From the NCBI GenBank assembly GCA_964578345.1, contig CAZOCP010000001.1, forward strand, positions 2,028 through 66,027: a stretch of DNA of 64,000 nucleotides, given 5' to 3'. The translations under genes were made by a program, and so were the position numbers. Positions 14,040-40,562 of the stretch are shown in pieces. Below the pieces are notes generated by a model. It was not told where the DNA came from. It ran no database searches and saw only the letters and a list, made by a program, of their open reading frames with translations. Each line of letters starts with the position of its first letter. Within the stretch, counting starts at the first letter, position 1. The DNA comes from Candidatus Woesearchaeota archaeon (GTDB taxonomy: Archaea > Nanobdellota > Nanobdellia > Pacearchaeales > GW2011-AR1).

Positions 14040-16193
14040 TTATATATTTCCAAGAGCAATTGCAGCCAAAACAGTTAGAGCAAGAATTGAAGCCAAAGCA
14101 GTTGCCGTATATAAAAGAACTCCGATCCTTAAGTTTTTACTCAATTCTGATTTTTCTTTTAATGGGTCTCTTCCCACATCAACAGTTACAAGAGCAGAAG
14201 TAAGAATAAAGATTATTTCAATTACATAAATTCCTATGCTAATTTGCATAAAATAGGGAGGAATCATCTTAGTAATATCAAATATCTGCACAATGTTCTC
14301 TATTGAACCAAGACTGCCTGCCGCTTGCTCAGAGCCTGCCGAAGCACTTATTGTTTGTATTTTATTTAGAATTAAAGTTATCATTGTTGATAAACCGACT
14401 ACTATTCCTGCTAGAAGGGGGGCAAGGAAAGTCATATTGGATTTCATATCTGAAATAACTTCTGCCAGTAGGTCTTTAAGGCGCTGGTTTATTTTTTGGA
14501 TGTTTTTTACATATTCTGAAATAGACATTAATGATCTGGCGGCGACTTGAAGGCCTTTTTTAACGGACTCTACCAAAATGCGCATTGATGTAGCAATTAA
14601 AGCTGAAGGGTAATATGTAATTGCTCCTCGTTTTTTGTCAAAAACTGCTGACTCTAGTGGCATTCCCATCTGTTGGATATTTTGGTTTACAATGGAAAAA
14701 AAGCTGTGAGTTATCTGGCTTTGAGTAGATTCTGCAACTTTTCCGAAAGCAATTTCCGCAGGAATTCCGTCGCCAAGCCTATTGCCAATATGAAAAAGAG
14801 AGTTGGTAAATTCCTCTTCTAGCTGTTTAGTCTGATTCCTGGCTTTAATTAATTCTGATGTTTTTTTTCTGTAGGCATAAAAGAAAAAAAGACCTATTGA
14901 AAACGGCACAAATAAGCTGAGAAGCGTGGATAGGGGGCCAAAGGGCCCGATTTTCTTTCCATCAATAACCTTGAACTCAAAAAGTTTTGTAGCTCTAAAT
15001 GCATCGTTTTCTATTCCTATTTCTTCAAAAGTATAATCACTTTTTATATGAAAATAAGAAGTTAAGGAGTCTATTTGAAATATGAAAGGAAGCAGGCCAA
15101 TTATCAGAAAGGGCAATGAAATGAGCGCCGCAGTAATCCATGGTTTTTTAGAAGTGAATTTTTTATATTCTGGATTTAACTCAAGAACCGAGCTTTCTCC
15201 ATATCCTCCTGGGCGTTTGAGAAGTATTTCTGAGGCAAGATAAAAGACGAATAGAGGGATTAAAAAATTAAATAAAATAAATATATGTTGCCATTGAATC
15301 ACTCCTTGTAGAAGAGTTGAAGCGAGAGGAATAAGTGCAAGTCCTAGAGTTGGAAGAATAATCCCCAACATGTAAATGTTTGTTAGAGGAGAGCGGATTT
15401 CTCTGCTATACTTAAGCATCTTTTCATATATCCCATCTAAAATTACCTGCAGGGATTTTTCTAATATCTGAACTCTGCGGTTTTCGGAAGGTTCGTAGAG
15501 AGAAGATTCTACTAAATGGAATGATTCTATAAATTCAGGAGCATAGTCTCTCCAACTTTCTAAGTATGAGTCTAAAGATTGTTTTATTGTAGGATATTTT
15601 CCTATTTCTACATCATAAAAAATCTTTTTGAAGTCTAAAGCTAGAGGGCCTTCTAAATGCTGAGATGCAAACTCAACGGCCCTTTCGAGATTTGAAGTAT
15701 GTTTCATATATACAACAATATATAGAATTGCAGGCACCATCTGTGACGATGCTTTCATCCTCCAAATATTTGCCAGTCTTTTCGGCATAGTATAAGTATA
15801 ATAGAATATGAACATGCTCGCCATCACTCCTAAAAACAAAAATAAAAGTTGAATAGAGCCGTTTATTAAATATATGGCAACGCCAATAGATACTGTTACA
15901 AAAAAAGCTATTAACATAGAAACAATTGATAATGTTAAAGCTTGGCTCGGCTCAACTTCTAGATGGGCAATTTTTAGAAACTTTTCTACTCTAACTCGGT
16001 CTTTTTCTGCCATCTTTATTTTTATTAGATTTCCCAAAGACTTAACCCATCTTTCATAACGGGAGATCTCAGGAAGCATATCTTTTTTGAACTGTACATA
16101 GTCTGGAGAATATCCGGCTTGTTTTCCTGAAGATTCTATTTGAGACTCTATTTTCTGCTTATACTTATCTAGTATATCGTCGACGCTTCCCAT
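14040..16193 (-). CDS. type IV pilus/archaellum-type polytopic platform protein (TadC/FlaJ/T2SS-F-like)
   Basis: 717 aa with two blocks of TM helices separated by soluble helical domains, as in FlaJ/TadC; transcribed divergently from the prepilin-like gene cluster. Confidence 0.5.
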   Translation of the reverse strand: MGSVDDILDKYKQKIESQIESSGKQAGYSPDYVQFKKDMLPEISRYERWVKSLGNLIKIKMAEKDRVRVEKFLKIAHLEVEPSQALTLSIVSMLIAFFVTVSIGVAIYLINGSIQLLFLFLGVMASMFIFYYTYTMPKRLANIWRMKASSQMVPAILYIVVYMKHTSNLERAVEFASQHLEGPLALDFKKIFYDVEIGKYPTIKQSLDSYLESWRDYAPEFIESFHLVESSLYEPSENRRVQILEKSLQVILDGIYEKMLKYSREIRSPLTNIYMLGIILPTLGLALIPLASTLLQGVIQWQHIFILFNFLIPLFVFYLASEILLKRPGGYGESSVLELNPEYKKFTSKKPWITAALISLPFLIIGLLPFIFQIDSLTSYFHIKSDYTFEEIGIENDAFRATKLFEFKVIDGKKIGPFGPLSTLLSLFVPFSIGLFFFYAYRKKTSELIKARNQTKQLEEEFTNSLFHIGNRLGDGIPAEIAFGKVAESTQSQITHSFFSIVNQNIQQMGMPLESAVFDKKRGAITYYPSALIATSMRILVESVKKGLQVAARSLMSISEYVKNIQKINQRLKDLLAEVISDMKSNMTFLAPLLAGIVVGLSTMITLILNKIQTISASAGSEQAAGSLGSIENIVQIFDITKMIPPYFMQISIGIYVIEIIFILTSALVTVDVGRDPLKEKSELSKNLRIGVLLYTATALASILALTVLAAIALGNI

Positions 16194-16433
16194 CTTTTAT
16201 TTAAAAGAAGAAGGTAAATGAAGTTATAAATGATGCGGTTCTTCCAGCTCTCTAGAAAGTTTCTCTGAAAAATAACATTTTTTGATTATTAGCTAAGAAG
16301 GTGAAAGATAAATTACTCCTGAAATTTCAAAAATTCTAACAAAGTTTGTTTGATTGTTTAGGTTGAACGAGGTTTTATTCAATTATGAAATAGACCTGAA
16401 AAATATATAAGCTAACTAAGAGACTAATAAAAA

Positions 16434-16625
16434 ATGGAACAAACAAAAGAAATAATAGAATTAAGAAATGACGTAAACAGTTTGAGAGAGGTAATTGAGA
16501 ATTTAGCAATTCTTATGAATAAAAAACTGATAAAGGAATTACAAGAAGAATCTAAATATATAGAAGCCGGAGAGTATCTAACTAAGCAAGAATTTGAAAG
16601 AAAACATAAAGTTAAAATAAATTAA
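16434..16625 (+). CDS. small coiled-coil protein
   Basis: 63-aa ORF, charged and helical; first gene of the + strand cluster. Confidence 0.25.
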   Translation: MEQTKEIIELRNDVNSLREVIENLAILMNKKLIKELQEESKYIEAGEYLTKQEFERKHKVKIN

Positions 16626-16773
16626 TATCTTTATAATATCCTCTTTTTATATAATCATCGCATTCATCTTTGTGTTTTATAGATAAAAGCCATATTTCTT
16701 TCGTGTGCTGCAGTAGAAACGCAATAATTTTCTGAAGAGGTAGATTTATTAATATTAATAAAGGATTATAAAC

Positions 16774-16926
16774 ATGGGACACAAAAGAGGAGAACTAACC
16801 TGGGCGGTCATCCCGTGGATTATTGCTCTGATTGTGCTGGCTTTAGTTTTTATACTATATTTGCTGCTCTCTGGAAAATTAGATGCTGTCTCAGATTTTA
16901 TCACAAAAACTCTGAGGTTTGGATGA
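16774..16926 (+). CDS. mini prepilin-like protein (50 aa) with class III signal peptide
   Basis: Hand-translated as MGHKRGELTWAVIPWIIALIVLALVFILYLLLSGKLDAVSDFITKTLRFG. KRGEL followed by a hydrophobic helix is the class III signal pattern. Its stop overlaps the next ATG (ATGA); it is not in the ORF track because it is under 60 aa. Confidence 0.45.
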   Translation: MGHKRGELTWAVIPWIIALIVLALVFILYLLLSGKLDAVSDFITKTLRFG

Positions 16927-17810
16927 AGTGTTCACTTTCTAAAAAAGGAGAAGTGGGCCTTAACGTTCTTTTATTAGGAATATTAGCGTTTGTTATTCTT
17001 GTGTTGGTTGCTTGGTTTCTGTTCTATTTTTTTCAAGGCAGGATAAATCCTTTTTTTGATTCTTTAGGATTTAACTTGACAAAGCCAGTTGCTGTTGAAG
17101 AGGAGATTTTTAGATTTAGATTGGGCAGCGAAGCAATAGAATATTATGACGGAAACAGATGGAATCCCGTGCCTCTGCCTAAAGCAAATGATCCAAGAAG
17201 AAAATCAGACTTACAATTAAACGATAAATTTTTCTTGCATGACGAAATTGGGAGTGTGTTTTTTTATTCTTATTTTACTCAAAATAGAATACAAAAAAAT
17301 ATTATGCGTTTGGATGGAGGAAAGGGAGGCATTGAAATTAAAGGCTTTAGAAAGGGGCCTGATAAATATGATAAAAATACGTTTAGATTTTATATATTTC
17401 TAACCGCATCAATTGGCCAAGAAACAAATGCAGAATACCTGCTTGATCATGAAGGAAAATTGTACAAATGGCCGAATAGAGAAGGATATGACGATGTTGT
17501 CAGAACGTCAAGTTTAGATAGATATGATAAAGCTCTTGTCGGATCTGAAGAATCAAATATTATAATTAATTATGAATCTGAATTTTCTAGAATAGAAAAT
17601 CCAGACGATATTGAAAAGCAAATTGTGCAAAAGGCAGAAGAGTGGAGGGATTCGGTATTGAAGCAGCCAATTAAATTTGTTTATTATTCTGATTCTAGTC
17701 TAAAAGATAAGAAAGAGATAATGGTCTGCATTAATAAAAGAGATCAGGATCTTATTGTTAATCTTGCCAAAAAATGGGAGGGAGGTGAATGTGACTATAA
17801 AGAAAAATAA
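16923..17810 (+). CDS. prepilin-like protein (class III signal peptide)
   Basis: Start re-assigned to the ATG at 16923 (MKCSLSKKGEVGLNVLLLGILAFVILVLVAWFL), preceded by GAGGT; the ORF-track N-terminal extension was discounted. Confidence 0.55.
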   Translation: MKCSLSKKGEVGLNVLLLGILAFVILVLVAWFLFYFFQGRINPFFDSLGFNLTKPVAVEEEIFRFRLGSEAIEYYDGNRWNPVPLPKANDPRRKSDLQLNDKFFLHDEIGSVFFYSYFTQNRIQKNIMRLDGGKGGIEIKGFRKGPDKYDKNTFRFYIFLTASIGQETNAEYLLDHEGKLYKWPNREGYDDVVRTSSLDRYDKALVGSEESNIIINYESEFSRIENPDDIEKQIVQKAEEWRDSVLKQPIKFVYYSDSSLKDKKEIMVCINKRDQDLIVNLAKKWEGGECDYKEK

Positions 17811-17919
17811 AAGAGCTGAATTGAGTGGAACAAGCATAGTAAGCATTATACTCTGGATTGTTTTTTTGATCTTATTAGGAACTTCTATTTGGTTTTTAAT
17901 TAATAAGCAGACGGCGTAA
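17791..17919 (+). CDS. possible mini prepilin-like protein (42 aa, GTG start)
   Basis: A GGAGGTGA SD is followed by GTG; translation (M)TIKKNKRAELSGTSIVSIILWIVFLILLGTSIWFLINKQTA shares the KRAEL motif with its neighbours; it overlaps the end of the upstream gene. Confidence 0.3.
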   Translation: MTIKKNKRAELSGTSIVSIILWIVFLILLGTSIWFLINKQTA

Positions 17920-17950
17920 TTGTTATAAAGTCAGATTTCTTTATGATTAC

Positions 17951-19087
17951 ATGAAAAAAGGGGAGCTTAGTTCGGCAGTGGTTATTCCTTTAATTTTAAT
18001 TATCGCTGCTTTTTTAATCATTCTTGCCTTTCTTGTCCGCAATCTTTATTTTAGTGAGCTAATAACTGATGAGACTTGTAAACTTTCAGTTATAACTAGA
18101 GCGACCGCACCTAAGAGTGTACAGCACACAGTTCCTTTAAAATGCCAGACAAAAAAAATCTGCTTGACTTCTGGAAAAGGAAAGTGTGAAGAAGCTTTTG
18201 CAGGAGAGAAAGCCCAATTTATAAAAATTCCTGATATCAGAAACCCAAAAAATGATAATCCTGAAAAAATAAGGGAAGCAGCTGTAATGATTGAAGAAGC
18301 AAGTGCGCAGGCAATGTATGACTGCTGGAACATAATGGGGCAGGGCAAAGTTGATTTATTCCATAATTTATATACAGTTTCAGGAGCCGCATCGGGGAAA
18401 GTCGCTTGCGTTATATGCTCCAGAGTTGCTATTGACAAAGGCGTCAATAAAAACGTTCTGGATAATATAGACATTAATGAATATATGAGAACGCATCAAG
18501 TTCCAGGAAGCAGTTTGACCTACTTACAAGCCTTTACTGATAAAAGTGTAAACTCTTATTCAAAGGTTGACAGTGGATTCACTTACGAAAAATACAATGA
18601 AGAAATTGACAAGATCCTCGGAGATGACAATAATGTTGAGTCTGAGACCGATAGGCTTTCTAAAGTGAAATTCGAGGAATGGTCTTCTTCATGTGAAGAA
18701 AAAATAGATGGCAAATGTGTGAATAGACAGATGGTGTTTGTGTTCAGCCAAATTAAGACAGAGAGTATAAAAGATTATCTATCAAGGGCATCAGAAGTAG
18801 GATTAACTCTTGGAGTAACTTCTTTTGTGACTCCTGTTGTTAGAAATATAGCCACAAAAATTATCTTTCACCCTACAGGCGCAGTTGTTTCTTTAGTAGC
18901 AGGAAGTGCTGCCGTAGGTTATGGAGTTTATAATGTGAGGCAGGGACAGCTTGCTGCAATCGGCCACTGTGGTCAGTTTACTTCTGGCGATAAAGATGCG
19001 CAATATGGGTGTTCGTTAGTGCAAGGTGTTAATTATAATATCAATGATATTGATGCGTTATGCCCGATTATTCAGGGAGGAAATTGA
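17951..19087 (+). CDS. prepilin-like protein (class III signal peptide), 378 aa
   Basis: N-terminus MKKGELSSAVVIPLILIIAAFLIILAFLV; large extracellular domain with several Cys. Confidence 0.55.
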   Translation: MKKGELSSAVVIPLILIIAAFLIILAFLVRNLYFSELITDETCKLSVITRATAPKSVQHTVPLKCQTKKICLTSGKGKCEEAFAGEKAQFIKIPDIRNPKNDNPEKIREAAVMIEEASAQAMYDCWNIMGQGKVDLFHNLYTVSGAASGKVACVICSRVAIDKGVNKNVLDNIDINEYMRTHQVPGSSLTYLQAFTDKSVNSYSKVDSGFTYEKYNEEIDKILGDDNNVESETDRLSKVKFEEWSSSCEEKIDGKCVNRQMVFVFSQIKTESIKDYLSRASEVGLTLGVTSFVTPVVRNIATKIIFHPTGAVVSLVAGSAAVGYGVYNVRQGQLAAIGHCGQFTSGDKDAQYGCSLVQGVNYNINDIDALCPIIQGGN

Positions 19088-19090
19088 ATT

Positions 19091-19690
19091 ATGAATCAGA
19101 AAGGCATTCTCGCTTCAAATACACTAGGGGTTATTATTGCAGTTATTGCTTTAGCATTACTGTCTGTTGGAGTATATGGGGCTGTGAAATCTTATATTTA
19201 TCAGGATAGAGAGAGCGCAAAAAATGTTTTGGACAGCGTCGAATCAAAGATTAATGCTCTAGATAATGTTGGAAAAACTTCTTTTCCTATTCACGGGCCA
19301 AAAGATTGGTATTTGACTGCCTGGGGGCTTGAAGAAAAAGAATCTAACAAACCTGAAAAATGCTATTTCAAAAGCTGCATCTGCATATGCAAGGCCTCTC
19401 TTAATATAGGAGATTCAAAGGATAAACTTATATCGCTCTGCCAATCTACAGGTATTTGCAGGTTCCCTGAATTTTCTAAAATTGAAGTCCGAGGGGTCAA
19501 TTTTGAGAAATATGCAAGAGCAGAGCAAGCAGGTTTGGGGGCGGGGGATATTTATAGCGGGACTCCCTCTGAGAAAGGAAAGGCAGAATATATTAAATTT
19601 AAAGGAACTCTTATTGAAGTACAAGTTGAAATGAAGGACAAAAAAACTTTAGTTATTAGTGATATTTCCTCTCTTGATGAGCAAAATTAA
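19091..19690 (+). CDS. prepilin-like protein (class III signal peptide)
   Basis: N-terminus MNQKGILASNTLGVIIAVIALALLSVGVYG. Confidence 0.55.
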   Translation: MNQKGILASNTLGVIIAVIALALLSVGVYGAVKSYIYQDRESAKNVLDSVESKINALDNVGKTSFPIHGPKDWYLTAWGLEEKESNKPEKCYFKSCICICKASLNIGDSKDKLISLCQSTGICRFPEFSKIEVRGVNFEKYARAEQAGLGAGDIYSGTPSEKGKAEYIKFKGTLIEVQVEMKDKKTLVISDISSLDEQN

Positions 19691-19691
19691 A

Positions 19692-32366: not shown

Positions 32367-35237
32367 TTAGAACAGACGATATTTGCCTGAATTTCTTATT
32401 ATATATCCTGTCATTCCTTTTGGTTCAATGTCAAGTATTACCATTCCCATATGCCCTCCGCCTCCACTATCAGCAGGCGCAGGTGCTGGCGCAGAGCTTG
32501 GAGCTGGAGCACTATAAGATGTGCTTGGAGCACTATATGTAGAAGTTGTAGAAGTGCTTCCTGTATGGTCTCCGCTTGAGTATGTAGAACTTCCAGAATA
32601 AGTTCCTGTTCCCGAGGTTGTTGTACTGCCTGAATATGGCGTACTATAACTCCCTGTAGTTCCACTGCTGTATGTTGATGTACCTGTACTGCTTGTATAA
32701 GAATCACCACTATAAGCTCCGGGGTTATATCCAGTTGAAGATGTGCTTCCAGAACTTGTTCCTCCTCCTTGATTTGTCCATGTACCATCTGAATTCTGTG
32801 CCCAGTTATTTCCATATGAATCTACAGCAGAGCCGCTGCTGTATGAAGAACTACCTGCTGAACTTCCTGAAGCAGAGGGAGGACTATAATATGCGGAGTA
32901 GTACCCTCCTGCATTATAATGTGTTGTTGAGTCTGTGCTGCTTGTTCCTGAGGTCTGGCCCGAGTATTGATTGTAAACTTCTCCTGTAGACGCATGCCAT
33001 GTACCATCTGTATTTCTTGTCCATTCTTTTCCAGAAGGATCACTGAGACCTGTGCTTGCTCCTTCTTTTGAATCATATATTTTTCCTGATGTATCTGTGT
33101 ACATACCTGATTTAGAATCATATGCATAATAACTAGAAGGAGGAGGAGTATATGCCTCGCCTGTTGACGATTTCCAGCTTCCAGTTGAACTGTCATATTC
33201 CCACTTTTCACCATGATCAGTTGTGTAGCTTTTTTCATTTTCATGACCTACTGGAGCGCCGGTTATTGCTGCGGGCTGGTAAGTTTGCCCATTAGAAGAA
33301 GTCCAAATGCTTTTTTCAGGATCGTATTCCCAATTTTCACCTCCGTATGAATAAGTATAAGCTTTTTCATTGCTATAATAATTTGTATATTGATTATGAG
33401 ATCCTGTTCCATCTGGAGGCACATACGCTTTTCCATCTGCCGCGATATAATGCTCAAATTCCGGATTGTATTCATATTTTACAGCTGTACCATCTTCTCG
33501 TTTGTATTCAAACCCTGTTGGTTTATGCTCAAACTGTCCCCCACCTACTACACTATAAGATCCTGGTTTGTATGAATATGCTTCTTTTGTACCATCTGGA
33601 TTTATAACTTCATAACCGGTGGCAAAGTATTTGTATTCATAAATACCTTCGGGCTTTCCATATTTATATTCATAAACTTCATCACCTCTTGCGAAAGTAT
33701 TTATTGGTTCATACTCTTCTGGATATTGCTGTTTATAGGTTTCTCCTGAAGGAGTTGTGTATTCATATTCTTTTTCGGAAAATTTATATTTATACCCGGA
33801 TGTTGGATCAACATATTCATGTCCTTTGACAAAACCTCCGCCTGGTTGGTATTTTTCAGAGTTATCATCACCAATCGGCGGCCAAACTGGCATTACATCA
33901 ATACCCTTATCTTCGAACTCTATAAAGCCAGGAGGAATATATTCTTCTCCATACGCTTTTCTAAATTCGTCAGCATATCTTTCTGACATAACTGATGCTA
34001 TTTCCTGCTCGGTTTTTCCTTCTGCACGGAATTTATCAAATAAATTATTATATTCTTCACCTAATTTTTGAGCAAGCTCCGAGACTCTTTTTGATTGTTC
34101 ATGTCTTTTCTCAATTAGTTCTGCTTTTTCAGGATATTTCTGCTTAAGTTCTTCTTTATATCTTTCAAGCTCTTCTAAATTAGAATTTTCCCCACCAATA
34201 TTTTTAGTTAGTTCTAATGGATCTAAGTCTGCTTTTTCTGCAAGTCTGGATTTTTCTTCTGCTGAGAGATCATCATATTTTTCAGCGTTTAGAGATATAT
34301 GCTCTGCTGCCGTAAACTGACCAAAAGCTTTTCCATAATCTCCATTTTCATAAGCGCTTTCACATATCTGAAGATGAAGTTTTGCATTTTCAAGCAGTAT
34401 TTCTTCAGTGTGCGTATCTTCTCCTGCTTTTTTAGCATCTACCAACTCAGTTTCCTGTTGAATAATCGCTGCTTTTAATACAGCTATTTCGGTTTCTGTT
34501 ATTTCTTGTTTATATTCATCTGTTATCCCGCTCTCATCTTCTTTTTCAACAACTGCGAGTTCTACTTCTATTTTAGGAACTCCGCTTGCTTCGGCTGTTG
34601 CCTCTATTGCTTCTTCTTTTCCATCAAGTATTTTTGCTTCAGCTTCTACAGTCTCTTCTCTTATTTCATTAATTAGACTGGCTGCGGTTTCTCTGTTTAT
34701 ATCACCAGTTTCAACTTTTTCTACAATAGAAGTTTGGAGTGCTTCGGCATACTTTCCGTTATCGATGATGCTTTTTTGAAGTTCGATTAGCCTGTGCAAA
34801 GGCGTGTCTTCTGATTGCTGGAATGTCGAGTATTCTATATGCGATTCATCAGCTGCTTGTTCTATATGCTGCTGTGTTTTTATAAGCAATTCCTGCGATT
34901 CATCAGCTGCTGATTGAGCGGCTTCGTAATCTCCTGCTTCAATCATTGCTTTCATTTCTGCCAGTCTCTCTGCGGTGTATTGTGCCTCAAGCTCTACCTT
35001 TGCTTCTGCACTTGTTACGAAATTAAGCCGCATATGTTCAAAGAATAATTCTACATTGTACATTGCGCTGTCAGGAGTTGTTCCGGGGTCCGGGAAAGTT
35101 ATTTCTCTGACTTGAGAGGAATCGTCCTCTGCTGCTAAAACATTGAAATTAAAGACACTAATTGACAACATTGATATTAGAAATAAAGATATTGTATTAT
35201 AAATTCGGCTACTTTTTCTTTTTTGGTAAGTGTACAT
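32367..35237 (-). CDS. large secreted cell-surface protein (signal peptide, acidic coiled-coil region, W-x-W-x-Y repeats, Ser/Thr/Tyr/Gly-rich tail)
   Basis: Signal peptide ISLFLISMLSISVFNFNVLA-AEDD. About 380 aa of E/K/A-rich helix. Four repeats of the type GEKWEYDSSTGSWKSSTGEAYTPP. The terminal roughly 250 aa are largely S/T/G/Y. The coding DNA is markedly more GC-rich than its surroundings. Confidence 0.6.
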   Translation of the reverse strand: MYTYQKRKSSRIYNTISLFLISMLSISVFNFNVLAAEDDSSQVREITFPDPGTTPDSAMYNVELFFEHMRLNFVTSAEAKVELEAQYTAERLAEMKAMIEAGDYEAAQSAADESQELLIKTQQHIEQAADESHIEYSTFQQSEDTPLHRLIELQKSIIDNGKYAEALQTSIVEKVETGDINRETAASLINEIREETVEAEAKILDGKEEAIEATAEASGVPKIEVELAVVEKEDESGITDEYKQEITETEIAVLKAAIIQQETELVDAKKAGEDTHTEEILLENAKLHLQICESAYENGDYGKAFGQFTAAEHISLNAEKYDDLSAEEKSRLAEKADLDPLELTKNIGGENSNLEELERYKEELKQKYPEKAELIEKRHEQSKRVSELAQKLGEEYNNLFDKFRAEGKTEQEIASVMSERYADEFRKAYGEEYIPPGFIEFEDKGIDVMPVWPPIGDDNSEKYQPGGGFVKGHEYVDPTSGYKYKFSEKEYEYTTPSGETYKQQYPEEYEPINTFARGDEVYEYKYGKPEGIYEYKYFATGYEVINPDGTKEAYSYKPGSYSVVGGGQFEHKPTGFEYKREDGTAVKYEYNPEFEHYIAADGKAYVPPDGTGSHNQYTNYYSNEKAYTYSYGGENWEYDPEKSIWTSSNGQTYQPAAITGAPVGHENEKSYTTDHGEKWEYDSSTGSWKSSTGEAYTPPPSSYYAYDSKSGMYTDTSGKIYDSKEGASTGLSDPSGKEWTRNTDGTWHASTGEVYNQYSGQTSGTSSTDSTTHYNAGGYYSAYYSPPSASGSSAGSSSYSSGSAVDSYGNNWAQNSDGTWTNQGGGTSSGSTSSTGYNPGAYSGDSYTSSTGTSTYSSGTTGSYSTPYSGSTTTSGTGTYSGSSTYSSGDHTGSTSTTSTYSAPSTSYSAPAPSSAPAPAPADSGGGGHMGMVILDIEPKGMTGYIIRNSGKYRLF

Positions 35238-36027: not shown

Positions 36028-36101
36028 TAGGCGGGCAGGGATTTGAACCCTGATCAGTTCCTCCGCAAGGAACTATTCTATCCTGGTTGAACTACTCGCC
36101 T
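36028..36101 (-). tRNA. tRNA-Arg (anticodon GCG)
   Basis: Hand-folded. Acceptor AGGCGAG/CCCGCCT (one A-C mismatch), D arm with GG, anticodon stem GTTCC/GGAAC with loop TTGCGGA, T arm CAGGG-TTCAAAT-CCCTG, discriminator A. Confidence 0.65.
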
Positions 36102-37197
36102 GTTGTAGTCTAGCAAGGTTTTTCGGATTATTTGAACTTATCTCTTTTAGCCATTTTTCTACCATTAATTTACCATTTAAGTCTATTTTCCATTTTCCAA
36201 CAGATGGGATAAAGCCCAATTTAATTAGCATTTCTTTAACTTCTCTTATCAAATGTTGAGATTTAATCGTGAAAGTTACTGTCGGATAATTTTTCTTCGA
36301 TTTTGAAAAACTTACACAACCATCCGTATCAAACAACCCCCTTATAAATCCTATATATGTCTTTTTATTTCTACTTTCAATTATCTTTTTAGGTACTTTT
36401 ATTCTTTCAATTTTATTTCCATAAGGTATATCCAAAACTTTATTCTTAAAGTCAAATAATGCTTGGGAGTAAATCTCAAAACCAACAACGCTTTCTAGTT
36501 CCATAAGCCTTAAGTCAATATTATATAAATCTTTATATAATGGAAATAAGAAATTTGTCATGTAGTCTTTTTCTTTTTTACTTATTTTAACTGAAAAGTA
36601 TTTTTTATTAAATGATAAACATCCATCTCCTAGATGGACCCCAATTTCTTCTGCTAGTTCAGGAGACATTTGCTTTGGAAACTTTAGGCCTTTTTGTTTA
36701 TCGCCTTTACTAAAGTTTATTTGATTTATGTTTAAAAGTATTTTTTTATTTATAAAATATTGACGATTTTCTATTTCTAATTTATTACTTCTGTCTTTTC
36801 TTTTTTTCATTTTAGTTTCGATTGCCTTTTTTATAAATTCCTTATTATATTTACCAATTAAATTTTTAACAGCTTTCTTACCTGCATTGCTTCTGATTTG
36901 ATGGAATCTTGGATCATGCCATAGATTTTTTAAATGGTTTATCTTCTTCTCAACACCCTGCTTTCCGCCTTTTATGCTCCCCCAATTGTCCGGTTTTTTA
37001 TCGTAGATTTCTGGATTTGTGAACTCTTTTGGAATTAAATTTTCTGGCATGTATAGCGATCCTAATCTATATTTTTGTAGGGTTTTTACAGGAATTCTCA
37101 CTTTGACAGATAAATCATTAAAATTATTAACTTTATATTTATCTTTTAAAAAATTGAAGAATTTTTCTCGTTCTTTTTTTGTTAGTAAGATTCTCAT
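36073..37197 (-). CDS. free-standing LAGLIDADG-family homing endonuclease-like protein
   Basis: Two LAGLIDADG-type motifs, VHLGDGCLSF and LFDTDGCVSF; the ORF 3' end runs 29 nt into the tRNA-Arg gene. Confidence 0.65.
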   Translation of the reverse strand: MRILLTKKEREKFFNFLKDKYKVNNFNDLSVKVRIPVKTLQKYRLGSLYMPENLIPKEFTNPEIYDKKPDNWGSIKGGKQGVEKKINHLKNLWHDPRFHQIRSNAGKKAVKNLIGKYNKEFIKKAIETKMKKRKDRSNKLEIENRQYFINKKILLNINQINFSKGDKQKGLKFPKQMSPELAEEIGVHLGDGCLSFNKKYFSVKISKKEKDYMTNFLFPLYKDLYNIDLRLMELESVVGFEIYSQALFDFKNKVLDIPYGNKIERIKVPKKIIESRNKKTYIGFIRGLFDTDGCVSFSKSKKNYPTVTFTIKSQHLIREVKEMLIKLGFIPSVGKWKIDLNGKLMVEKWLKEISSNNPKNLARLQQASSSTRIE

Positions 37198-38046: not shown

Positions 38047-39096
38047 TTAAGCAAATGCTTCCCTTGCTTTAAAGGGGCTTATATCAGGGGAATTAGGACA
38101 TAACCAAAAATTTTTATTTTCTTCCAAAACTTTAATACTGCTATCCAGCTTTGTCTGCATAATATTATCCATTAAAGGAAAAAGAACATTCAAATTATTG
38201 TGATATCTGCAATGATGTAAGAAATGGTGATTATCCAAGCTTCTAAAAACTTTAGAATTGCGCAAATACCTCTGAATTGTTCTATTAGTCCCATAATATA
38301 TTCTTTCCTTAAAAGTCGCCAAATCTTCTCTATAATTTATCTCTCTTTCAAGTAAAACGTCCCTTGTTGCACTTAACAATTTTTCCACATCTTCTGAATG
38401 TACATCAACGTAAGCAAGAGGAAGTTTCTTTATTGCTTTGCGTTCAGTGTTATATCTTATTTGTTCTGCAAATCGTTGAACAAGCGAATAAGGGTATAAA
38501 AAATTACTTCTAAATTGTCTATTAAAATTGGAGTCTATATCTCTTTCAATTAAATTGCAGATATCATCTAAAAGAGGCTTTGATAAACGCAAATTTCCAT
38601 CGCGATTTTCTGTTCCTCCTTGTATTTTATCTCCAATTACTCTGTTCACGGTCAATCTTCTCTCGCCAATTACGTGCATAAAATGATGAACAAATTCATA
38701 ACCACCGTAATAAGCCATTGTCCCTCCAACAAAACCAGATAAAAACAAAGCATCACCAATACCAAAATAAGCATTCTCATTGAGAGATAAAAAAACTCCA
38801 TCAATGGCACCTCCAACAATAGCTGCGGCGCCGGCAATAAGCCCAACATCGCCCTTGGCAAAATGAATAACTTGATTTTCATTAGTTATATCTCTATAGT
38901 AATGTGCAGGTCCATTATATGCTCTATGATGAATATCATTATGTCCTCTAGACGCATTCTCAATAAATTTAACTTTTTTTCTTAAGCTGGAAGGAGCATG
39001 AAGAATATTCTTATGAACCATCCATTCAAGAGGGGAACAAACTGAAAGGCTCAAAGCACCTCCAGCAAAGAAATAACCAATAAAATCAAAGACCAT
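38047..39096 (-). CDS. fatty-acid-hydroxylase-superfamily (His-box di-iron) membrane protein
   Basis: Histidine boxes HKNILH, HNDIHH and HHFLHH in a membrane context. Confidence 0.4.
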   Translation of the reverse strand: MVFDFIGYFFAGGALSLSVCSPLEWMVHKNILHAPSSLRKKVKFIENASRGHNDIHHRAYNGPAHYYRDITNENQVIHFAKGDVGLIAGAAAIVGGAIDGVFLSLNENAYFGIGDALFLSGFVGGTMAYYGGYEFVHHFMHVIGERRLTVNRVIGDKIQGGTENRDGNLRLSKPLLDDICNLIERDIDSNFNRQFRSNFLYPYSLVQRFAEQIRYNTERKAIKKLPLAYVDVHSEDVEKLLSATRDVLLEREINYREDLATFKERIYYGTNRTIQRYLRNSKVFRSLDNHHFLHHCRYHNNLNVLFPLMDNIMQTKLDSSIKVLEENKNFWLCPNSPDISPFKAREAFA

Positions 39097-39347: not shown

Positions 39348-40562
39348 ATGAAGATAATCGCAGACTTGCAAATACATTCTAGATTCGCGAGAGCGACAAG
39401 CAAGAATATAACTCTTGACAATTTGGAGAAATATGCAAGGATAAAGGGTGTTGATTTACTAGGAACGGGGGATTTTCAGCATCCTTTATGGAATAAAGAA
39501 ATTAAAGAGAATTTAAAAGAGGACGATAAAGGAATTTTATGGAGTAAAACCGGATTTCCTTTTCTTTGGCAAACAGAGATAAGTTTGATGTTTTCTCAGG
39601 GCGAGAAAAAAAGGGCAGTGCACTTGCTGGTTTTCGCTCCTAATAAAACAATTGCAGATAAAATTATTAATTATCTAAGTAGTAAAGGAAGAATTGATTA
39701 TGATGGCCGGCCGATTTTTGGTATCTCTTGCAAGCAATTTGTGCGCGATCTGAAAGAAATTGAAGATAGAATTGAAATTATTCCCGCACACGCTTTCACG
39801 CCGTGGTTTGGCTTATATGGAAGCGACAGCGGATTTGATTCTCTGCAGGAATGTTTTGAAGAAGAAGCAAAGCATATTTATGCTATTGAATCGGGAATGA
39901 GCGCAGACCCGCCCATGATTTGGCGTTTAAAGGAAAAAGTAAATATTGTTAGTTTTAGCGATGCACATAGTTTTTGGCCTTGGAGATTAGGGAGAGAAGC
40001 AACAATTTTTGAAATTTCAGAAATTTCATATGAAAATATTATTAAAGCAATTAGGATTGGAGATGGAATTGTTGGAACTATTGAAACCCCCCCAAAATAT
40101 GGAAAATATCATTGGGATGGGCATAGAAACTGCAATTTTTCTTGTTCCCCTTTAGAAACTAAAAAATTTAATGGAAAATGCCCTACATGTGGAAATACGC
40201 TGACAATCGGAGTGGAAAATAGAATAGATGCAATTGCAAAGGAAAAAGAGGGATATAAGCCATCCAACGCCATACATTTTTATTCTTTACTGCCTCTGCA
40301 TGAGCTTATAGCATCAGCATATAGTACTTCTATAACATCTAAACTATGCTGGAAAATATATAATGAAATTATTTTAAGTCTAGGCAATGAATTTACAGCG
40401 CTTCTTGAAGCGAAAAAAGAAAAACTATTTTCTCTTAAATTAAGCAACTTGCTTATTGAAATTATTCTTCTTAGCCGAAGAGGAAAGTTAGCGGTTAATC
40501 CAGGATTTGATGGAGAATATGGAACCATTAAGCTACCTGAACAACAGGTAAAACTTTTTTGA
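39348..40562 (+). CDS. PHP-domain nuclease, EndoQ-like (TIGR00375-type)
   Basis: N-terminal PHP signature IADLQIHSRFARATS...GTGDF and a C-terminal CxxC zinc finger CPTCGNTLTIG. Confidence 0.45.
   Translation: MKIIADLQIHSRFARATSKNITLDNLEKYARIKGVDLLGTGDFQHPLWNKEIKENLKEDDKGILWSKTGFPFLWQTEISLMFSQGEKKRAVHLLVFAPNKTIADKIINYLSSKGRIDYDGRPIFGISCKQFVRDLKEIEDRIEIIPAHAFTPWFGLYGSDSGFDSLQECFEEEAKHIYAIESGMSADPPMIWRLKEKVNIVSFSDAHSFWPWRLGREATIFEISEISYENIIKAIRIGDGIVGTIETPPKYGKYHWDGHRNCNFSCSPLETKKFNGKCPTCGNTLTIGVENRIDAIAKEKEGYKPSNAIHFYSLLPLHELIASAYSTSITSKLCWKIYNEIILSLGNEFTALLEAKKEKLFSLKLSNLLIEIILLSRRGKLAVNPGFDGEYGTIKLPEQQVKLF

Follow-up and report, generated by a model that had tools for sequence, protein, structure and literature searches.

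The closest described counterparts of the genes considered here are small pilins of archaea and bacteria. Archaeal prepilins are defined by a short basic leader, a charged residue at position −2 and Gly or Ala at position −1 relative to the cleavage site, and a hydrophobic H-domain that follows the site (PMC4371748). The Epd small pilins of Methanococcus maripaludis (arCOG06620; DUF361/Class_IIIsignal) include the major pilin EpdE (MMP1685), of 62 amino acids (aa), and the small, essential minor pilin EpdD (MMP1283), with mature lengths of 54 to 63 aa (PMC3875500). The Flp pilins of Tad systems (type IVc; Caulobacter PilA, PDB 8U1K) are 40 to 60 residues long when mature, consist of a helix only, and form filaments (PMC10710030). 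In this work, we analyzed a 64,000-nucleotide (nt) stretch of DNA from a Candidatus Woesearchaeota archaeon (contig CAZOCP010000001.1; hereafter the window, within which all coordinates are given) that carries two very short open reading frames (ORFs), designated mini1 (16774–16926, forward strand) and mini2 (17791–17919, forward strand), on either side of a gene for a larger pilin-like protein. We find that both are genuine, conserved protein-coding genes under purifying selection. Judged by their sequence features, both encode class III signal-peptide, type IV pilin-like proteins of a Pacearchaeota-type filament locus, and they would be among the shortest pilin-like proteins described.

The first-pass annotation of this DNA had placed both ORFs where we find them, with an ATG start and 50 aa (MGHKRGELTW...RFG) for mini1 and a GTG start and 42 aa for mini2, and had pointed to conservation of the reading frames in relatives as a check. 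A search of 5.8 billion proteins with the single mini1 sequence gave no match besides mini1 itself, and therefore related loci were retrieved through synteny, by way of homologs of the 717-aa platform protein that is encoded divergently from mini1 (14040–16193, reverse strand). The resulting comparison set comprises 80 Pacearchaeota/Nanoarchaeota loci from other genomes, in which gene order was read by tblastn and a pattern scan and the mini families were then identified by hidden Markov model (HMM). Both ORFs recur syntenically in this set: HMM matches occupy the expected slot in 70 of the 80 loci for mini1 and in about 59 to 65 for mini2, with both present in 62, and mini1 has one copy per locus. 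The loci without minis are mostly on contigs that end near the platform gene. In nearly all loci of sufficient length, the shared order is a divergent platform gene, an ORF of ~50 aa, a large variable pilin-like gene, and an ORF of 35 to 48 aa, followed by homologs of the genes for the 378-, 199-, and 158-aa proteins and others, and usually by an A24 peptidase gene as the last member.

Several lines of evidence demonstrate that the two reading frames are conserved protein-coding genes. HMMs built from the homologs of other genomes only, when run on the 1279 six-frame segments of the window, selected exactly two of them, namely mini1 (61.9 bits, E 2.6e-18) and mini2 (45.1 bits, E 5.5e-13). In codon-aligned comparisons, the proportion of nonsynonymous differences (pN) was lower than that of synonymous differences (pS) in 99% (mini1) and 98% (mini2) of pairs, pN/pS was ~0.1 to 0.3 in the closest pairs, and entropy per codon position followed the order 3>1>2. 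Moreover, frame, length, position, and motifs are kept although the platform proteins of the same genomes are only 60 to 75% identical. It could be argued that one or both ORFs are noncoding, either as chance frames in AT-rich DNA or as upstream ORFs whose peptide is irrelevant, because both are very short and because mini2 in this genome has a GTG start, overlaps the preceding gene, and was missed by gene finders. However, the conservation of frame, length, position, and amino-acid motifs across genomes, the purifying selection on both minis, their independent detection by HMM, and the promoter and Shine–Dalgarno (SD) signals that stand in register with the start codons leave this explanation with next to no probability, and we regard noncoding explanations as effectively excluded. 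The earlier concern that the GTG-initiated ORF might be a chance overlap is likewise refuted, because the family is conserved, HMM-detected, and under purifying selection, and its orthologs start with ATG in nearly all cases. The frame of mini2 is also open from a TTG at 17755. A role for mini2 as a regulatory upstream ORF of the 378-aa gene that follows it was considered and is ruled out by the purifying selection on the peptide and by the promoter that the 378-aa gene has of its own.

Both ORFs had been described as unannotated, which holds for mini2 of this genome but not for mini1, which is called in NCBI, ENA, and Logan records. All mini1 homologs that carry a name are deposited as 'hypothetical protein'. 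A profile search with the mini1 family against 1.84 billion representative proteins returned 1217 clusters at E≤1e-3. The best 150 of these are 43 to 99 aa long, and the match reaches to within 3 residues of the C terminus in all but one, the exception being P0323 with 22 more residues after the match. Because the matches run to the C-terminal end, no fusion of mini1-family proteins to a globular domain is apparent.

The architecture of both proteins agrees with the archaeal prepilin definition, in that a basic leader ends with K/R at −2 and G/A at −1 and the H-domain follows the predicted cleavage site (PMC4371748), and the strictness of the −2 and −1 residues together with the hydrophobic run that follows bears out the class III signal peptides previously proposed for them. 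For mini1, the consensus reads M-x-K-[KR]-G-[EQ]-x-x-W-[DE]-T-L-I-P-W-I-I-(hydrophobic)-Y-x-x-L-S-G-K-G-x-G-A-I-[DE]-[FY]-[ILF]-K-N-[LM]-[FW]-R-F-G-[KR]. Among 48 members, position −2 is K/R in all 48 and position −1 is Gly in 47 and Ala in one, after leaders of 4 to 13 aa; position +1 is Gln in 15 and Glu in 12, and Asp or Glu occurs at +4/+5 in 33. Across the family, median values are 20 residues for the longest uncharged/hydrophobic run and 46 aa for the predicted mature protein. For the protein of the window, the predicted cut after G6 (MGHKRG) would leave 44 aa (4947 Da) made up of a membrane helix and an amphipathic C-terminal helix. An AlphaFold2 model (predicted local distance difference test score 80) has helices at residues 8 to 32 and 36 to 49, separated by a break at the conserved SGK, and the hydrophobic moment is 0.59 for the C-terminal helix versus 0.13 for the membrane helix. 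A Foldseek search with this model gave no match. The best-conserved segment of mini1 is its amphipathic tail, ...KGxGAIEF(I/L)KN(L/M)(F/W)RFG(K/R). Mini1 thus amounts to more than a bare signal peptide, and most of the larger pilin-like genes are less well conserved than this family.

The corresponding consensus of mini2 is M-x-K-K-[GA]-[LIMF]-x-G-[ED]-S-[IL]-T-x-I-L-L-W-I-I-F-F-I-L-A-x-x-A-V-Y-F-L-I-K-[KR]-[LF]-T, in which one Trp is near-invariant. Position −2 is K/R in 45 of 46 members and position −1 is Gly in 30 and Ala in 16, after leaders of 4 to 17 aa; Asp or Glu stands at +4/+5 in 29 of the 46, and +1 is mostly L/I/F. The longest uncharged/hydrophobic run spans 19 residues (median), and the median predicted mature length is 32 aa across the family. 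In the window, a predicted cut after A9 (MTIKKNKRA) would release 33 aa (3690 Da) consisting essentially of one hydrophobic helix with a short basic C terminus. When the two mini profiles are compared with each other, they align over the leader and the N-terminal helix only (hhalign probability 87.5%). N-glycosylation sequons are found in 4 of 48 mini1 and 5 of 47 mini2 sequences, and cysteines are scarce in both families.

Curated models do not recognize these proteins. Pfam and NCBIfam scans of all pilin-cluster genes and of the mini family members gave membrane-helix noise matches only. PF04021 (Class_IIIsignal/DUF361) was not reported for the proteins of the window and Flp_Fap did not match them, and both models are absent from the 25 most-matched families among the 48 mini1 and 47 mini2 members at E≤1. 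Profile searches of the PDB with both minis gave nothing significant and no Tad pilin at E≤10. The top PDB match of mini2 was an archaellin signal peptide that aligned in register (E 2.4, nonsignificant and suggestive only), and mini1 matched a Saccharolobus pilin at a likewise nonsignificant E of 5.8. The KRAE/KRGE/KKGE-type motif that had been noticed in the neighboring genes does recur: [KR][KR][G/A] followed by a hydrophobic stretch forms the N terminus of every gene from 16774 to 22651. Eleven of these fit a strict pattern, and the 158-aa gene, which has a longer spacer, raises the count of class III motif genes to twelve. Essentially no further instance is found elsewhere in the window.

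The three genes that begin with mini1 are tightly coupled. The TGA of mini1 and the ATG of the 295-aa gene (16923–17810, forward strand), whose product has the class III N terminus MKCSLSKKG|EVG..., overlap as ATGA at 16923–16926, and the final 20 nt of the 295-aa gene, up to the end of its stop codon at 17810, are shared with mini2. Of 47 related loci, 25 have the same 4-nt overlap between the mini1 stop and the following start, and a further 10 have a spacing of −1 to +5 nt; at the other end of the trio, mini2 starts within or directly at the end of the gene before it (−23 to +1 nt) in 32 of 46 loci. Translational coupling of both minis to a larger pilin-like gene, as proposed in the first-pass annotation, is thus present here and conserved in relatives, and the SD sequence that it placed directly before the GTG of mini2 is there as well (GGAGGTGA, 17781–17788, two bases upstream). 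SD-like motifs precede mini2 orthologs in 48% of loci versus a background of 13%; upstream of mini1, there is no such enrichment (11% versus 13%).

Each end of this gene trio is marked by a promoter-like element. The TATA box- and B recognition element-like sequence TAGATTTATTAAT (16741–16753, forward strand) lies ~29 nt upstream of the mini1 ATG. An element of the TTTA[AT]TAA/TTTATAA type begins at exactly −29 in 39 of 48 loci, with columns −29 to −26 conserved at 92 to 94%. A second element, CGTAATTGTTATAAA (17915–17929, forward strand), contains the stop codon of mini2 and precedes the start codon (ATG) of the 378-aa gene by ~28 nt. Its conserved form, CG[TC]AATTGTTATAAA, also includes the mini2 stop codon and is more conserved than the mini1 element. 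A TTATAAA-type element starts at −28 of the 378-aa gene in 26 of 37 loci and at −29 in 4 more (30 of 37 together), and columns −28 to −22 are 81 to 89% conserved. Because archaeal TATA boxes stand ~26 to 27 nt upstream of the transcription start, both transcription units look leaderless. With one promoter before mini1 and another directly after mini2, mini1, the 295-aa gene, and mini2 appear to form a unit of their own, and the eight-gene block at 17951–22651 appears to form the second leaderless unit.

We compared these properties with those of the described systems. Like the Epd small pilins, which have class III signal peptides of 5 to 13 aa whose last residue is Gly, frequently followed by Q/E at +1 and by an acidic residue around +5 (PMC3875500, PMC4371748), the minis have no globular C-terminal domain. 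Both systems also comprise many pilin-like genes and a dedicated A24 peptidase, and the Epd ATPase is encoded elsewhere (PMC3875500, PMC4371748, bioRxiv 10.64898/2026.04.22.720090). The resemblance to the EppA-type QxSxE motif (Gln at +1, Glu at +5) is partial, given that +1 is Q/E in 27 of 48 mini1 members and mostly L/I/F in mini2. Unlike the Epd pilins, the minis are only about 46 and about 32 aa long when mature, have no PF04021 match, are almost free of N-glycosylation sequons whereas EpdE is a glycoprotein, and are translationally coupled in an operon whereas EpdE-type genes typically stand alone.

Comparability to bacterial Flp pilins, which had also been suggested for these ORFs, stands with respect to the size of mini1 and the architecture of both proteins, and the TadB/C-type platform is a further likeness. 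It does not extend to the Flp motif or to HMM matches. The Glu5-Tyr6 motif is lacking, as +6 is L/E/T in mini1 and L/I in mini2 rather than Tyr, and neither Pfam nor the PDB offers a significant pilin match. Flp forms one continuous helix, whereas mini1 is predicted to be helix-break-helix with a conserved SGKG turn, and mini2 falls below the Flp size range. The host here is archaeal, with no secretin or outer-membrane parts.

The coupled trio also calls to mind the minor-pilin complexes that act in priming or at the tip (GspH-K of the type II secretion system, ComGD-G of competence systems, EpdA-D of archaea), in which distinct pilin-like genes are encoded together and their products, co-expressed and of low copy, start or finish the filament; genetically, the trio is similar. 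To our knowledge, all known minor pilins have a globular domain of ~100 aa or more, and we know of no described counterpart of a helix-only minor pilin of ~32 aa. The arrangement also resembles Geobacter PilA-N/PilA-C, where a short helix-only pilin gene directly precedes a larger partner gene (PMC10710030). Unlike PilA-C, the 295-aa protein is a pilin-like protein in its own right, complete with class III signal peptide and N-terminal helix. A Geobacter-like split pilin, with mini1 as the N-terminal part and the 295-aa protein as the C-terminal part, was rejected on account of this complete N terminus.

The reading that we favor, at roughly an even chance of being correct, is that the minis, once processed by the peptidase, are minor pilins consisting of a helix only and assemble together with the large pilin. 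Each mini would insert in the membrane with its basic leader in the cytoplasm, and the A24 peptidase encoded at 26206–27066 would cleave after the G/A of K-[KR]-[G/A], which is G6 in mini1 and A9 in mini2. This would leave 44 aa of mini1, comprising the core helix and the amphipathic tail, and 33 aa of mini2, comprising just the core helix. Both peptides would then be extracted from the membrane by the TadB/PilC-like platform and enter a type IV filament as subunits without any domain beyond the helix. Coupling of the three genes would yield roughly matched amounts of their products, and the minis would probably join the large pilin-like protein, which is variable and presumably adhesive, in a small complex to which they add core helices. 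Within such a complex, they may nucleate, cap, or anchor the filament, as minor pilins and not as the bulk subunit. There is precedent for this proposal in EpdD and in the fact that minor pilins are encoded in operons alongside other pilus genes (PMC4371748).

A number of observations weigh against this reading. Cleavage, incorporation into a filament, and stoichiometry are all predictions from the sequence, and the proposed complex with the 295-aa protein draws its support from gene coupling. The first ~9 residues past the presumed cut in mini2 are merely moderately hydrophobic. Both minis carry positive charge at the C terminus as well as in the leader, so that their topology cannot be assigned by the positive-inside rule. 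In its leaderless transcript, mini1 comes first, a position compatible with a role as major subunit. Finally, a Walker-A pattern search and Pfam revealed no secretion ATPase in the window or in the 10-kb platform flanks of relatives; note that the ATPase of the M. maripaludis Epd system is likewise encoded elsewhere (PMC3875500).

The main alternative is that mini1, which stands at the head of its transcript, is itself the major subunit, a helix-turn-helix of ~46 aa that polymerizes without globular domains in the manner of Tad/Flp or EpdE pili, with its basic amphipathic C-terminal helix forming the surface and with mini2 and the larger proteins as minor subunits. The median mature length lies within the 40- to 60-residue Tad range (PMC10710030) and near the 62 aa of EpdE (PMC3875500). 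The absence of any globular fusion across the 1217-cluster family, the acidic +4/+5 residues in 33 of 48 members, the strongly amphipathic C-terminal helix (moment 0.59), and a conservation that outranks most of the larger pilin-like genes all fit such a subunit. Moreover, mini1 stands first behind a strongly conserved promoter, and flp-1, the major Tad pilin gene, is first in tad operons. However, the ATGA coupling, with neither gap nor terminator, favors matched over hugely excess expression, only a single mini1 copy is present per locus, and its most conserved part is the tail that is presumed to be surface-exposed. Nor is there a Flp motif (no Tyr at +6) or a match to the Flp or Class_IIIsignal models, and the second, more conserved promoter drives eight pilin-like genes, each of which might be the bulk subunit. 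We therefore consider a major-subunit role for mini1 doubtful, although it deserves serious attention. A bolder elaboration, which we judge fairly unlikely, would have mini1 form an all-helical, basic-surfaced pilus more reduced than those of Tad/Flp or EpdE, primed by the 32-aa mini2, that attaches to hosts or binds DNA. If this were true, mini2 would be the smallest pilin known, and a pilus would exist in a lineage reported to be without type IV pili.

The minis might instead never leave the membrane but remain bitopic proteins that serve as accessory, anchoring, or alignment factors for the platform, the peptidase, or the large pilins, with [KR][KR]G acting as an uncleaved topogenic signal or docking site only. 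Their ambiguous topology, with basic ends on both proteins, is compatible with such a role, and the conservation of the mini1 tail would fit a fixed contact with another protein or with lipid headgroups. Mini2 is shorter than the pilins reported in PMC10710030 and PMC3875500, and H-domains of Haloferax pilins are known to regulate independently of filament structure (PMC4371748). However, the −3/−2/−1 motif is as strict in the minis as in the ten pilin-like neighbors and lies at an equal distance from the N terminus, and the acidic +4/+5 residues are also kept. Retention of this kind would be difficult to account for if the peptidase did not recognize the proteins, and we hold purely membrane-resident factors to be unlikely.

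Among the other components of the locus, the 295-aa protein encoded between the minis is highly variable, with homologs that are 22 to 40% identical (tblastn) and about 250 to 540 aa long in relatives. In five loci (L004, L015, L023, L026, and L033), the gene between the minis is replaced by two mid-size pilin-like genes of ~150 to 230 aa each, of which the second resembles the 199-aa family, and both flanking minis are retained. Because the minis are kept where the middle gene has been replaced by two, the middle of the module appears to be exchangeable and its ends do not.

Downstream of mini2, the block at 17951–22651 (forward strand) contains eight tightly packed pilin-like genes with class III-type N termini (378, 199, 158, 144, 234, 161, 174, and 111/103 aa), the order of which is conserved in related loci. 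The 378-aa family (17951–19087; in relatives, for example, from 7868 in L003 and from 8106 in L005) is the best conserved of the large pilin-like genes. After its N-terminal helix, it has a conserved segment, C-x-L-S-V-[LI]-[TS]-R-A-T-x-P-...-P-L-[KQ]-C, that includes two invariant cysteines. Given this conservation and its own promoter, the 378-aa protein may be the bulk subunit or an important structural element.

The 717-aa protein is polytopic, with a cytoplasmic helical bundle of the PilC/EpsF (PilC/GspF) type. It has no Pfam match of its own but more than 3900 homologs at 60 to 75% identity, a few of which match PF00482 (T2SSF) or are named 'Flp pilus assembly protein TadB' by JGI. Because of these homologs, we take it, with moderate confidence, as a platform protein of the TadB/TadC/PilC type; an hhalign search for internal repeats was negative or uninformative. 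The 286-aa A24 prepilin peptidase (26206–27066, forward strand; Peptidase_A24, PF01478, E 5e-13) has both catalytic signatures (D22 and GGGD81-84), and 43 of the 80 related loci have a homolog downstream of their pilin cluster. Every class III protein of the locus is presumed to be processed by it. The Pfam domain spans residues 10 to 116 only, and the C-terminal 170 residues contain a basic stretch as well as more membrane helices. In this respect, the 286-aa enzyme recalls EppA, the pilin-specific peptidase, which is stated to exceed FlaK/PibD considerably in size.

Archaea of the DPANN group are thought to live attached to other cells, and their surface organelles are almost uncharacterized. 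The nearest relatives of the proteins in the window belong to Pacearchaeota, Nanoarchaeota, and 'Woesearchaeota' metagenome-assembled genomes, all DPANN archaea. Type IV pilus components have been stated to be missing from DPANN genomes (bioRxiv 10.1101/2020.05.14.094862), nanoarchaeal pilins could not be found in a 2016 archaeal census (PMC4858521), and in a 2026 preprint on archaeal type IV filaments, systems of DPANN archaea are mentioned but the proteins described here are not. Within the locus at 14040–27066, only the peptidase matches a curated model (PF01478), whereas the platform protein and the twelve class III genes go unrecognized by Pfam and NCBIfam. Nevertheless, the locus as a whole, with platform, twelve pilin-like genes, and peptidase, is conserved in thousands of metagenomic sequences. 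The published absence of DPANN type IV pili may be explained by this invisibility to Pfam and NCBIfam.

The minis, two of the best-conserved components of the locus, lie at or below the lower size limit of known pilins, and the predicted mature mini2 of ~32 aa is below the pilin sizes reported in PMC10710030 and PMC3875500. Relative to the helix-only Flp/Tad and EpdE pilins, what appears to be new is that their sequences are unrelated to curated families, that they are shorter, that they belong to a conserved three-gene module, and that they occur in a lineage for which pili had been reported as absent or could not be identified. The evidence is firm at the level of the genes, and their role in a filament is inferred. 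For annotators, they provide two HMM-ready families, and for mass spectrometry, targets with predicted masses of 4.95 and 3.69 kDa. The three-gene module could be used to probe the minimal protein needed for type IV filament assembly, and the findings bear on the proposed archaeal origin of bacterial Tad/Flp pili.

Several further features of the window were recorded. Between the platform gene and mini1 lies a 63-aa charged ORF (16434–16625, forward strand), probably a coiled coil, that is called in public records. It had no tblastn match in the 80 related loci and may be lineage-specific or spurious. Elsewhere, the window contains genes for both PolD subunits, Orc1/Cdc6, RadA, and further archaeal proteins. 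A possible large surface protein of 956 aa (32367–35237, reverse strand) combines a hydrophobic segment at the N terminus with a DUF5667 domain; several sizeable ORFs in its neighborhood (38047–39096, 39348–40562) lack any Pfam match. A tRNA-Arg(GCG) gene (36028–36101) is overlapped at one end by a 374-aa ORF (36073–37197, reverse strand) with a LAGLIDADG_3 homing-endonuclease-like domain.

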